Translations under genes and position numbers: made by a program | The notes under the pieces: generated by a model | Told to the model about the DNA's origin: nothing | What the model saw: the letters and a program-made list of their open reading frames with translations, nothing else | Databases searched by the model: none | Shown here: piece by piece, positions 144 to 855 of the stretch | Layout: every line of letters begins with the position of its first letter | Numbering within the stretch: position 1 is the first letter of the stretch | From: Naegleria gruberi | Taxonomy: Eukaryota | Assembly: GCA_000004985.1 (NCBI GenBank) | Contig: GG739616.1 | Length of the DNA stretch: 1,016 nt | Direction: 5' to 3' (one strand)

Positions 144-202
144 GTACTTTTCATCTCTTGATGACTACCGGGAATGAAATTTCCTAATTTGGAAGATGAC
201 TT

Positions 203-250
203 GCTTCAACAACAATAATAACAACATAACAAATACAAACAATAATAAAT
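203..250. repeat. Low-complexity (CAA/AAC/AAT)n-like tract: ttgcttcaacaacaataataacaacataacaaatacaaacaataataaa
   Basis: Imperfect trinucleotide-type simple sequence, read directly. It lies in the presumptive 3' UTR or intron after the 3..143 coding segment. Confidence 0.5.
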
Positions 251-292: not shown

Positions 293-362
293 GATTGTTT
301 ATTGTTAATTAATTATTGATGATGAATAGATACCACTCTGATTGTAAAAATACTTAAAAACT

Positions 363-460
363 CAGAGTAATCACCGTGACGCCAAATTAACATATAATAA
401 TAACACATTATTAATGTACTACCGTGTCGCCAAATTCCTTGATAATTATTCATAACTGTA
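363..460. repeat. Two-unit tandem repeat with a period of 48 bp. Unit cores are accgtgacgccaaatt (373-388) and accgtgtcgccaaatt (421-436).
   Basis: Direct repeat 48 bp apart. It produces the duplicated IWRHG in the track ORF translation. The cores resemble the taccgggaatgaaatttcc core of repeats A and B (taccgtgtcgccaaattcc at 420-438, about 13 of 19 identical). Confidence 0.5.
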
Positions 461-517
461 ACTTCTTGATCTAAAGACACTCGAGCATTTGATTTCACAC
501 AAAACTCTCGTTCATAC

Positions 518-607
518 CATGGGCACCGGGAATGAAATTTCCAAATAAGGAATGACCGATATCATTCAACTATTACTAACTAACACACACTAACAAAACA
601 AATTGAA
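518..607. repeat. Copy B of a diverged direct repeat of about 90-100 bp, contiguous with the tRNA-like unit. On the minus strand it ends with the T-arm/acceptor-like motif GGAAATTTCATTCCCGGTGCCCA.
   Basis: An 18-nt identical core accgggaatgaaatttcc (525-542) is shared with copy A (167-184). The flanks align at roughly 65-70% with indels (…ggaa-gatgac…ttcaac…taac…aacaaa…aaattg…). Confidence 0.6.
595..598 (-). terminator. T4 run (minus strand TTTT) immediately 3' of the T-loop of the tRNA-like unit. It is a potential Pol III terminator that would give a transcript of about 60-65 nt.
   Basis: Minus strand reads ...GGGTTCAATTtgTTTTgtta. Four or more T residues terminate Pol III in many eukaryotes (established knowledge). 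Whether four suffice depends on species. Confidence 0.25.
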
Positions 608-651
608 CCCGGGTCGCCAGAGTGACAGTCTGGAATGCTACCACTATACCA
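601..651 (-). promoter_or_regulatory. Internal Pol III promoter elements of the tRNA-like unit: A box (641-651, TGGTATAGTGG) and B box (601-609, GGTTCAATT, 3' part of the consensus missing)
   Basis: Both match the consensus TRGCNNAGTGG / GGTTCGANTCC at the canonical positions of the tRNA-like sequence. The B box lacks the terminal CC. Confidence 0.35.
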
Positions 652-658
652 CACCCGA
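601..658 (-). pseudogene. tRNA-Asp(GUC)-derived sequence, 5' two-thirds intact (acceptor 5' strand to T-loop), 3' T-stem/acceptor missing or displaced. It is a tRNA pseudogene or the tRNA-related head of a repeat.
   Basis: Minus strand reads TCGGGTG-TG-GTAT-AGTGGTA-GCAT-T-CCAGA-CTGTCAC-TCTGG-CGAC-CCGGG-TTCAATT. The acceptor 5' strand is 7 nt and T8 is present. The D-arm carries an A-box-like TGGTATAGTGG, with one A:C mismatch in the D-stem. The anticodon stem is a perfect 5-bp helix (CCAGA/TCTGG) with a 7-nt loop CTGTCAC, T33, anticodon GTC and A37. The variable region is 4 nt, the T-stem is CCGGG and the T-loop TTCAATT is B-box-like. The next bases are tgttttg instead of CCCGG plus the acceptor 3' strand, so a cloverleaf cannot close. 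The overall primary sequence resembles eukaryotic nuclear tRNA-Asp genes (GTATAGTGGTA...CTGTCAC...GACCCGGGTTC). Confidence 0.55.
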
Positions 659-680
659 TTTCACATAAATTCATCTATCG

Positions 681-688
681 ATATATAT
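681..688. promoter_or_regulatory. TATA-like element (ATATATAT). It lies about -23 to -30 from the 5' end of the minus-strand tRNA-like unit and about 170 bp upstream of the + strand ATG at 856.
   Basis: cgATATATATca at 679-690. Upstream TATA-like elements at about -25 to -35 are typical of tRNA genes in plants, insects and fission yeast (established knowledge). Which transcription unit it serves cannot be decided from sequence. Confidence 0.3.
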
Positions 689-855
689 CATTTGAAAAAT
701 CAACACTGTCAAAGAAAAAGCTTATCGCAAAAAACTTCAATTGAAATTCCCATCCTAAACAAAGATACGTGTTATCCAATGTATAGTAGTGACTTGTAAT
801 TCTCACATCACACTCATCCTCTCATCGGTAGGGCAATAACAGCTATTTCACCACC

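Follow-up and report, generated by a model that had tools for sequence, protein, structure and literature searches.

A tRNA-Asp body on the minus strand

The stretch of DNA analysed here (the window, 1,016 nucleotides) has a GC content of 33% and contains two convergent coding fragments with a 780 bp AT-rich spacer between them, in which the unit under study is located. The 46-amino-acid C-terminal ORF fragment had no match in the protein database. A minus-strand segment of 58 nt within the spacer (601..658; standard positions 1-60) is the 5′ part of a tRNA-Asp(GTC), identified with the RF00005 model, a profile of intact relatives and alignment. Read from 658→601, it is TCGGGTG-TG-GTAT-AGTGGTA-GCAT-T-CCAGA-CTGTCAC-TCTGG-CGAC-CCGGG-TTCAATT and comprises the acceptor 5′ strand, the D arm, the anticodon arm with GTC, the variable region, the T-stem 5′ strand and a TTCAATT T-loop. 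When positions 601-672 were searched alone so that truncated matching applied, RF00005 (gathering score 29) returned 31.5 bits (E 1.4e-5) as a 3′-truncated match to model positions 1-58 of 71. The profile built from intact relatives matched the window at 662→601 with an E of 1.7e-20 (nhmmer). Both matches bear out the canonical tRNA-Asp 5′ part that a preliminary description, made from the letters alone, had placed at 658-601, and every other sequence feature listed there was likewise found in its place. The unit is best read as a copy of a eukaryotic nuclear tRNA-Asp(GUC) gene. ARAGORN called no gene in the intact window, and RF00005 was not listed for it at E≤10 (Rfam); the contiguous full cloverleaf of a tRNA gene is absent.

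Intact relatives of the gene

Intact genes with a nearly identical body are present in metagenome contigs L002, L004, L005, L008 and L011 (metagenome scan; ARAGORN calls). The copy in the window differs from the consensus of these relatives at 5 of 71 positions, three of them in the acceptor stem. The variant nucleotides are U6, G7, U16, A57 and C69; the substitutions at 6, 7 and 69 preserve pairing, that at 16 falls in the D-loop, and position 57 is still a purine, as in L008. All five are compatible with function, which counts against regarding the copy as a pseudogene. C69 is derived in this copy, because a neighbouring relic (see below) retains the ancestral TGCTCGAG; the five differences, this one included, would fit drift after duplication. 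In another related contig, L003, this tRNA has lost 10 nt from its T arm, so pseudogenes of the type do occur.

The surroundings of the relatives yielded little. An ORF in L008 matched its own Logan cluster only, and stop-codon usage in the relatives was uninformative and gave no genetic-code signal. A “fungal” label for the relatives was considered and dropped: a Zn2Cys6 motif seen by eye in L004 was unconfirmed, Pfam giving only F-box-like and TPR matches. Searching the prokaryote and phage collections with the 17-mer of the anticodon arm retrieved only chance coding matches and unrelated bacterial or phage tRNA-Asp genes. Viral contigs contained no match to a 31-nt body segment and a single GC-rich chance match (L001) to the 18-nt core of the repeated module described below.

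The 3′ part of the gene is displaced by two blocks

The intact relatives end in TTCGATT-CCCGG-TGCTCGA-G followed by TTTT. In the window, the pieces of such a gene match on one strand, in order and each above chance, the minus-strand order being 5′ flank, positions 1-60, a 70-nt block, positions 61-69, an 11-nt block, positions 70-73 and a TTTT trailer. The first block (531..600, minus strand) starts directly after the T-loop with TGTTTTG (600→594), as had been described; its T4 run (598-595) lies 2 nt inside the block, its middle is TG/TA-rich, and it ends in GGAAATTTCATT. The junction is ambiguous through the repeated ATT / TTCA(A)TT.

Beyond this block lies CCCGG-TGCC (522..530, minus strand), corresponding to the T-stem 3′ strand and acceptor positions 66-69 and contained in the exact 11-mer ATTCCCGGTGC (533→523), which is common to the intact relatives and occurred in none of 200 shuffles. 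Given the 3′ ends of the relatives, this downstream piece is the missing 3′ part of the gene. It is the core of the longer TTTCATT-CCCGG-TGCCCAT at 537→519, whose start is 63 nt past the T-loop (70 nt when counted to CCCGG) and which had been singled out in the preliminary description; the relatives’ profile independently matched 535→518 as a T-loop-to-acceptor segment with an E of 0.054 (nhmmer). Since the exact 11-mer is shared with intact genes, the parental 3′ end is related to 521-537, in keeping with the split gene that had been proposed.

The second block (511..521, minus strand, 11 nt, CATGGTATGAA) is inside the acceptor 3′ strand. It is followed by CGA (positions 70-72), G73 and the trailer AGTTTTG (500..510, minus strand), a natural gene end with a T4 run at 504-501. 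The pattern CGAGANTTTTG, built from the 3′ ends of the relatives, matches exactly at 500..510 and in 0/200 shuffles; CGAGAGTTTTG was also found in none of the 200.

Deletion of the 70 nt alone led ARAGORN to call a tRNA-Asp(gtc) at its default threshold. The acceptor stem then contains 3 G-C pairs, 2 G·U pairs and 2 terminal mismatches, in line with the five pairs out of seven, two of them G:U, counted earlier. A lone insertion of ~63 bp is insufficient because the two terminal mismatches remain; block 2 must go too. With both blocks deleted, a 71-nt perfect cloverleaf tRNA-Asp results, its acceptor fully paired (5 Watson-Crick and 2 G·U), together with G73 and the usual CGAG-AGTTTTG trailer. 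Removal of both intervening sequences thus restores a canonical cloverleaf, as is the case with ectopic introns. A flawless tRNA with a normal trailer after double removal is also what a functional interrupted gene is expected to give, and this counts against a pseudogene.

Local repeats and further tRNA-Asp relics

Block 1 together with CCCGGT is a local repeat. Its second copy (copy B, 167..239, minus strand, read 239→167), which consists of block 1 sequence plus TTCATTCCCGGT, has no tRNA body upstream. Over ~73-79 nt, copy B aligns with the copy in the gene (copy A) with a Smith-Waterman score of 54, compared with a mean of 20 and a maximum of 35 in the null set. Identity is highest in a 28-nt module core, ACCGGGAATGAAATTTCCNAATNNGGAA (25/28 between 167-194 and 525-552, including 18/18 exact), and lower in the TG-rich part (37/53) and the tail (14/24). 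The better conservation of the core than of its surroundings could reflect constraint on the motif, a point against the pseudogene reading. Recurrence of the 3′ module without a tRNA body had been noticed before and holds: remnants of a tRNA body upstream of copy B, and elsewhere, were non-significant (p 0.1-0.9; p 0.05-0.4).

Several tRNA-Asp fragments lie on the same strand within 500 bp. The 5′ flank of the gene, TTTATGTGAAA plus T1C2 (657..669, minus strand), is one copy of a 13-nt repeat, the other being TTTGTGTGAAATC at 491..503 (minus strand); the two are identical at 12 of 13 positions, with 0.01 such repeats expected by chance. An AAA leader just before T1 is common to the relatives (AA in L004). 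Three nucleotides (AAA) after the second flank copy comes TGCTCGAG (480..487, minus strand), an exact acceptor 3′ strand of the ancestral type with G73, which is the same as the 3′ end of L002, L004, L005, L010 and L011 and was found in 0/200 shuffles. From this match and its position, TGCTCGAG at 487→480 is read as the relic of a second tRNA-Asp copy that lacks positions 3-65. The pattern TGGCGACNCGG has 3 same-strand matches where 0.01 are expected. Two of these are short relics of tRNA positions 41-51, namely TGGCGACACGG (repeat D2b, 422..432, minus strand) and TGGCGTCACGG, which is followed by T-GATTAC-TCTGAG-TTTTT (repeat D2a, 356..384, minus strand; seed at 384→374). The latter possibly represents the 3′ half of a decayed copy together with its terminator; its tail (p 0.07) and an upstream extension (p 0.03-0.06) are both no more than suggestive. 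Taken together, the flank repeat with TGCTCGAG and the two TGGCGACNCGG relics point to a decaying tandem cluster.

The leading proposal of the preliminary description, a tRNA-Asp gene disrupted in the T-loop by an insertion or recombination, is thus retained as regards the disruption and the displaced 3′ part. The single ~63-bp insertion is not, in view of the second, 11-nt interruption, the nature of block 1 as a local repeat and the further tRNA-Asp relics.

One can ask whether there was any insertion at all, since two adjacent partial tandem tRNA-Asp copies could mimic a split gene. In the first copy, a small deletion would have removed the 13 nt at the 3′ end and left the T-loop next to the copy’s own TGTTTTG terminator, and the 5′ two-thirds of the second would have decayed into the TG-rich “insert”, with the 3′ half of the T arm and the acceptor end surviving. 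TGTTTTG after the T-loop does resemble the trailers of relatives (CTGTTTTG, AGTTTTG), TTGGAAATTTCATTCCCGG can be taken for a complete T arm with C→T changes, block 1 has a weak collinear alignment with the tRNA body, and other partial copies are clearly present at the locus. However, block 1 shows no significant similarity to the tRNA body with either scoring (p about 0.3) and was rejected as a decayed second body; moreover, the spacing demands very tightly packed copies, and the 11-nt block is left unexplained. We therefore regard such a juxtaposition as unlikely, while granting it some weight.

The flank repeat could instead be taken for a 13-bp target-site duplication around a tRNA-derived, SINE-like retroposon, a 153-nt unit (656→504) with a tRNA-Asp head, of which copy B would be a 5′-truncated insertion. 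A significant 12/13 direct repeat does bracket the unit, the A box is intact, and copy B has the 3′ portion only, like 5′-truncated retrocopies. Yet the last letters of the repeat, AAATC, are the conserved leader of the relatives and the genuine T1C2 of the tRNA, and TGCTCGAG stands 3 nt after its second copy, an arrangement predicted by tandem gene copies and not by target-site duplication. Furthermore, there is no A-rich or LINE-like tail, the B-box core is imperfect, the two copies are 360 bp apart and undispersed, and no exact match to the module pattern or to a 28-nt body segment was obtained from the metagenome or prokaryote genome collections. Though genuine, the repeat is made of the leader and initial bases of the gene, with the relic of a 3′ end behind it, and was dismissed as a target-site duplication. 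This flank evidence weakens the SINE head put forward earlier as a second reading, and we consider a retroposon quite improbable.

Promoter elements and the possibility of a retained Pol III unit

The sequence TATATAT is present at 681..687 (minus strand, 687→681), −29 to −23 relative to T1, in AT-rich DNA, and the A-box region TGGTATAGTGG is intact. The internal B box, GTTCAATTT, has one core mismatch, the last conserved C (C61; C61/C62) being lost. No conserved counterpart of the TATA was found upstream of the relatives’ genes. The unit had been called promoter-bearing on account of a TATA at about −25; the TATATAT is there, but the label is unsupported, the TATA being unconserved in the relatives and the internal B box having also lost its last conserved C. 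The external B-box core GTTCRANNC/GTTCRANYC had no exact match in the window, and with one mismatch allowed there were 6 matches against 4.45 expected, the module not among them. Since allowing one mismatch still did not bring out the motif in the module, an external B box was discarded. A scan for bacterial-type promoters and terminators stayed at chance level, except for a hairpin at 274-293.

The unit might still be kept as a Pol III unit or TFIIIC-bound site, either producing a ~65-nt RNA of the tRNA 5′ three-quarters that ends at the first T4 or serving as a chromatin element, with the module as a putative protein-binding site. Such a role would suit the preservation of the body, which far exceeds that of the other relics, the TTTT directly after the T-loop, and the module core, which is conserved at 25/28 and holds the palindrome GAAATTTC and a TTCC…GGAA pair. 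Against it, the B box has lost C61/C62, the module is unlike a B-box core even at one mismatch, and the TATA is unconserved. In the relatives, a longer run of T often backs up the T4, an indication that T4 on its own would be a weak stop. Retention of this kind appears very improbable to us.

Tests for removal of the blocks

[quoted passage not shown] A synthetic positive control was detected by the same scan. Nor was the fold more stable than that of shuffled sequences (z +0.31, −0.39). With no valid BHB and no stable fold, a structured intron was rejected, and the low rank that the preliminary description had given to a tRNA intron is supported.

A functional interrupted gene would require precise removal of both blocks to give a normal tRNA-Asp. 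This could happen in RNA, as with the BHB-independent ectopic introns reported for the Guillardia theta nucleomorph, or in DNA, as with germline-limited sequences of ciliates. Its attractions are that the double deletion yields a perfect cloverleaf with G73 and a normal trailer, that every substitution is compatible with function, that short direct repeats (ATT; C) stand at the block borders, and that both flanking ORF fragments end in TGA. The relatives’ stop-codon usage, as noted, offers no help here. The borders share only ATT and C and lack the TA-bounded ends of ciliate internal eliminated sequences, the BHB and fold results are negative, and a T4 run occurs 2 nt into block 1. In addition, copy B repeats block 1 and “exon” sequence, yet its acceptor part is decayed and its body absent, and 70 nt far exceeds the 3-24 nt of nucleomorph insertions (PMC4090602). 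We hold functional removal to be extremely unlikely. The same extremely low standing applies to its specific version, in which 70 nt would be removed from the TΨC loop and 11 nt from the acceptor 3′ strand, and the conserved 28-nt module, located where the larger block ends on its 3′ side, would be the excision signal.

Discussion

The locus is probably a rearranged, non-functional tRNA-Asp(GUC) copy in a small, decaying cluster of tRNA-Asp debris that lies on one strand. Local duplication would have created a short array of tandem tRNA-Asp genes, and decay would have followed through deletions, small insertions and the copying of adjacent DNA at such short repeats as ATT / TTCA(A)TT (block 1) and a lone C (block 2). 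Of the array, the member nearest the 5′ end would have preserved its body and lost its contiguity. As it stands, the DNA would be unable to encode a cloverleaf tRNA; any Pol III transcript would be predicted to stop at the T4 run 598-595 or to continue to the T4 run 504-501, and neither block appears to carry a recognisable signal for its excision. A eukaryotic tRNA gene with an insertion in its D or TΨC arm is generally taken for a pseudogene when it has many synonymous counterparts (PMC4090602). Here, intact homologues exist in L002, L004, L005, L008 and L011, and the copy carries interruptions of 70 nt and 11 nt.

As in other eukaryotic tRNA pseudogenes with TΨC-arm indels, one copy of a multi-copy family is broken in the T arm and cannot be called by the usual programs; intact relatives exist, and L003 represents another lesion of the same tRNA type. 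The present case differs in having two interruptions whose precise removal restores a perfect gene, in that the larger interruption is a local repeat carrying tRNA 3′-end sequence, and in the several further same-strand gene fragments within 500 bp. Ectopic and multiple tRNA introns (Cyanidioschyzon merolae nucleus; cryptophyte and chlorarachniophyte nucleomorphs; Crenarchaeota) are similar in that interruptions occur outside 37/38, including the TΨC loop, that a gene may have more than one of them, and that removal in silico restores the cloverleaf. In contrast to those systems, neither junction here has a BHB or relaxed BHB, and block 1 is 70 nt long with an internal T4. The 780 bp AT-rich spacer is unlike a nucleomorph genome, and the GC content of C. 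merolae is far above the 33% of the window.

Dictyostelium external B boxes offer another parallel: in both cases an AT-rich genome has a T-loop-like motif a few tens of nucleotides 3′ of a tRNA gene, and an orphan copy of the motif elsewhere. In Dictyostelium, the box is ~41 bp 3′ of a complete tRNA gene (PMC3159450), whereas the module here lacks the core GTTCRANNC/GTTCRANYC and the distance from the T-loop is 63 nt. The locus resembles tRNA-derived SINEs in its tRNA-related head containing an A box, in the unrelated body, in the direct repeat that brackets the unit and in having a second, headless copy; it differs in that the repeat is made up of the leader of the gene and its first two nucleotides and precedes a relic 3′ end, that no tail is present and that the copies are adjacent. 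Finally, the tRNA 3′ duplications at att sites of prokaryotic islands and phages likewise consist of direct repeats of the 3′ portion downstream, with crossover-like T-loop junctions. Here, unlike at att sites, the intervals are just 11-360 bp without integrase or cargo, the gene is not regenerated, and the context is eukaryotic.

The analysis also documents a tRNA-Asp type of eukaryotes whose anticodon stem is CCAGA/UCUGG and which occurs in several uncultured eukaryote contigs. Loci of the present kind, if it is indeed a decayed copy, are missed entirely by standard tRNA finders. If both BHB-less blocks were precisely removed after all, ectopic interruption of tRNA genes would extend to a new eukaryotic lineage and mechanism. 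If, as we favour, the cluster is decaying, the locus would be an ordinary example of the decay of tRNA gene copies, in which the steps (tandem copies, internal deletion and copying at 1-7-nt repeats) are unusually legible within 500 bp.

Anatomy of the interrupted tRNA-Asp gene

The minus strand from position 658 to 601 carries the initial 58 nt of a tRNA-Asp(GTC) gene, T-loop TTCAATT included, followed by TGTTTTG. No tRNA was called in the native window by ARAGORN, nor by Rfam at E ≤ 10. When 601-672 was searched alone, which allows Infernal to score a match ending at the sequence edge, RF00005 matched with 31.5 bits (gathering threshold 29, E = 1.4e-5) over model positions 1-58 of 71. The preliminary description, made by reading the sequence alone, of a tRNA-Asp 5′ part at this location is therefore exact; the T run it noted directly past the T-loop is also present.

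Collections of viral, metagenome and prokaryote genome contigs do not contain the window itself. Relatives of the gene were obtained by scanning metagenome contigs for its unusual anticodon arm, TCCAGACTGTCACTCTGGC, which retrieved seven eukaryote-like contigs bearing an almost identical tRNA, five of them intact according to ARAGORN. The F-box-like proteins, TPR proteins and poly-N/Q/H tracts encoded by these contigs mark them as eukaryotic; a fungal label, our initial guess, was not confirmed. Their consensus tRNA is TCGGGCATGGTATAGGGGTAGCATTCCAGACTGTCACTCTGGCGACCCGGGTTCGATTCCCGGTGCTCGAG, with an AAA leader in front and a run of TTTT or longer within the next 10 bases. The window copy differs from it at five positions (C6T, A7G, G16T, G57A and T69C). 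A TATA promoter had also been proposed; TATATAT is indeed found at −29 to −23, but has no conserved counterpart among the relatives.

The downstream piece TTTCATT-CCCGG-TGCCCAT reported earlier is located at 537→519. Because its 11-mer ATTCCCGGTGC (533→523) is identical to the T-loop/T-stem/acceptor segment of the relatives (0 of 200 shuffles) and a relatives-based profile independently picks up the piece (E = 0.054), it is, judging by sequence, the same gene's own 3′ part. The 3′ ends of intact parental genes are thus related to it, and the proposal of a split gene withstood this comparison.

Removal of 600→531 (block 1, 70 nt) was sufficient for ARAGORN to call tRNA-Asp at the default threshold. 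As anticipated, five of seven acceptor positions then pair (three G-C and two G·U), with terminal mismatches T1·T72 and C2·A71 remaining. Eleven bases on, CGAG-AGTTTTG at 510→500 corresponds exactly to the relatives' acceptor end, G73 and trailer; the pattern describing them, CGAGANTTTTG, was matched in 0 of 200 shuffles. When the intervening block 2, CATGGTATGAA (521→511), is removed together with block 1, a 71-nt cloverleaf results, whose acceptor stem is fully paired (five Watson-Crick and two G·U pairs). The earlier idea of a T-loop disrupted by one insertion of about 63 bp holds in that the 3′ part is displaced downstream, but full pairing requires that a second interruption be removed as well.

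Related tRNA-Asp genes in other contigs

The textbook cytosolic tRNA-Asp anticodon stem is CCCGC/GCGGG. A eukaryotic tRNA-Asp(GUC) type with an A-U-containing stem, CCAGA/UCUGG, is present in the metagenome contigs L002, L004, L005, L008, L010 and L011; contigs carrying this type have 35-50% GC and come from several samples. The related metagenome contig L003 (~1040-1100, minus strand) contains the same tRNA-Asp minus 10 nt of the T arm (junction GACCCGG/CGGTGCTCGAG), receives no ARAGORN call and is another pseudogene of this type. The sequence GGGCTCTTAACCCAACGGTCGGGGTT of L002, situated ~110-140 nt 3′ of the tRNA-Asp anticodon arm, resembles part of a different tRNA; it has a CTT anticodon-loop-like stretch, and ARAGORN made no call. 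The 17-nt anticodon arm CCAGACTGTCACTCTGG is also found in bacterial MAGs L017, L033 and L048 and viral contigs L053, L056, L059 and L060; the remaining arms of these bacterial and phage genes are unrelated to the window's tRNA, an apparent case of convergence, not homology.

Block 1 is part of a local repeat

The second 3′ module reported at 161-184 is real (core 18/18 exact, 25/28 overall). The similarity extends over 73-79 nt (602→525 versus 239→167; score 54, null maximum 35) and so takes in block 1 entirely, from immediately behind the T-loop to CCCGGT inclusive. The TG-rich part is 37/53 identical, the core 25/28 and the stretch past CCCGGT 14/24. Both copies share a one-base T-loop loss (TTCATT versus parental TTCGATT) and, in line with the preliminary description, no tRNA body could be discerned ahead of the copy at 239→167. 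Since the similarity spans the block through CCCGGT, block 1 is best described as a local repeat already bearing tRNA 3′-end sequence. That it is instead the decayed front part of a second tRNA-Asp copy is the leading variant of this reading but improbable, its similarity to a tRNA body being not significant (p ~0.3). The module 14-mers TTCCTAATTTGGAA and TTCCAAATAAGGAA (181-194 and 539-552) are mutual reverse complements at 13/14 positions, which looks like a small hairpin-loop inversion between the copies.

A functional, doubly interrupted gene would account for the flawless restoration by the double deletion, the compatibility of all five substitutions with structure and the conspicuous conservation of the 28-nt module core. 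However, a bulge-helix-bulge (BHB) scan that detected a synthetic control found none with correctly placed cuts at either block, and folding of the complete unit was not more stable than that of shuffled sequences (z-scores +0.31 and −0.39), making this reading very unlikely and bearing out the low rank previously given to a tRNA intron. The locus differs in this respect from the BHB-defined ectopic tRNA introns of C. merolae (PMC3728597); those of nucleomorphs are 3-24 nt long (PMC4090602).

We also considered that the unit might be kept as a Pol III or TFIIIC element, which we regard as quite unlikely. The internal B box of the tRNA copy reads GTTCAATTT. The core of Dictyostelium external B boxes, GTTCRANNC (PMC3159450, PMC5391098), is missing from the module even with 1 mismatch allowed, which sets the locus apart from that system.

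tRNA-Asp relics downstream

Right after the trailer, TTTGTGTGAAATC (503→491) repeats the 5′ flank plus T1C2 (669→657) at 12/13 positions (0.01 expected by chance). Three bases past it, TGCTCGAG (487→480) reproduces the ancestral acceptor 3′ strand and G73 exactly (0 of 200 shuffles). We read the two as a second gene copy that would have lost positions 3-65. On the same strand, TGGCGACACGG (432→422) and TGGCGTCACGG (384→374) repeat tRNA positions 41-51, a pattern with three matches versus 0.01 expected. The GATTAC-TCTGAG-TTTTT behind TGGCGTCACGG is suggestive of a 3′ half, a resemblance that is not significant (p 0.07).

The bracketing of the unit by a significant repeat could point to a SINE with a target-site duplication. 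Yet the repeat consists of the relatives' conserved leader and genuine tRNA bases, and a relic 3′ end lies behind it. This arrangement matches tandem copies of the gene rather than an insertion site; the locus fails the target-site-duplication test, and a SINE has little probability.

Surroundings of the locus

The 1016-nt window (GC ~33%) contains a plus-strand coding-like fragment ending with TGA at 141-143 and, at its right edge, the end of another ORF on the minus strand; an AT-rich spacer of ~780 nt separates the two. With read-through of its first TAA, the minus-strand ORF also ends with TGA, at ~879-881. The two TGA ends hint at a ciliate-like TGA-only stop code, two cases being no proof; related contigs gave no stop-code signal. 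A strong 8-bp spacer hairpin on the plus strand (274-293, TAGTGACC-GTTA-GGTCACTG) precedes a T-rich tail. It is one of only two terminator-like matches in the window (0.4 expected) and could be a transcript-end signal of the upstream ORF.

Proposed history

The anatomy of the unit is observed directly; for its history we infer, with reasonable though far from full confidence, a decaying tandem tRNA-Asp cluster whose best-preserved member was disrupted, in both the T-loop and the acceptor strand, by neighbouring cluster sequence. Local duplication would have produced a short tandem cluster, whose decay left one copy without its interior and others as relics of 11-30 nt. The best-preserved copy may have suffered two breaks, one in the T-loop and another in the acceptor strand, when nearby cluster sequence was copied into it or recombined with it; very short repeats, ATT or TTCA(A)TT at block 1 and C at block 2, would have served as junctions. 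Compared with the ancestral TGCTCGAG preserved nearby, the five substitutions of this copy would be consistent with post-duplication drift.

The locus resembles T-arm-interrupted tRNA pseudogenes mentioned for eukaryotes in reviews (PMC4090602) and is a fresh case of this already known phenomenon. Precise removal of both blocks, if true, would raise the significance of an otherwise ordinary locus.
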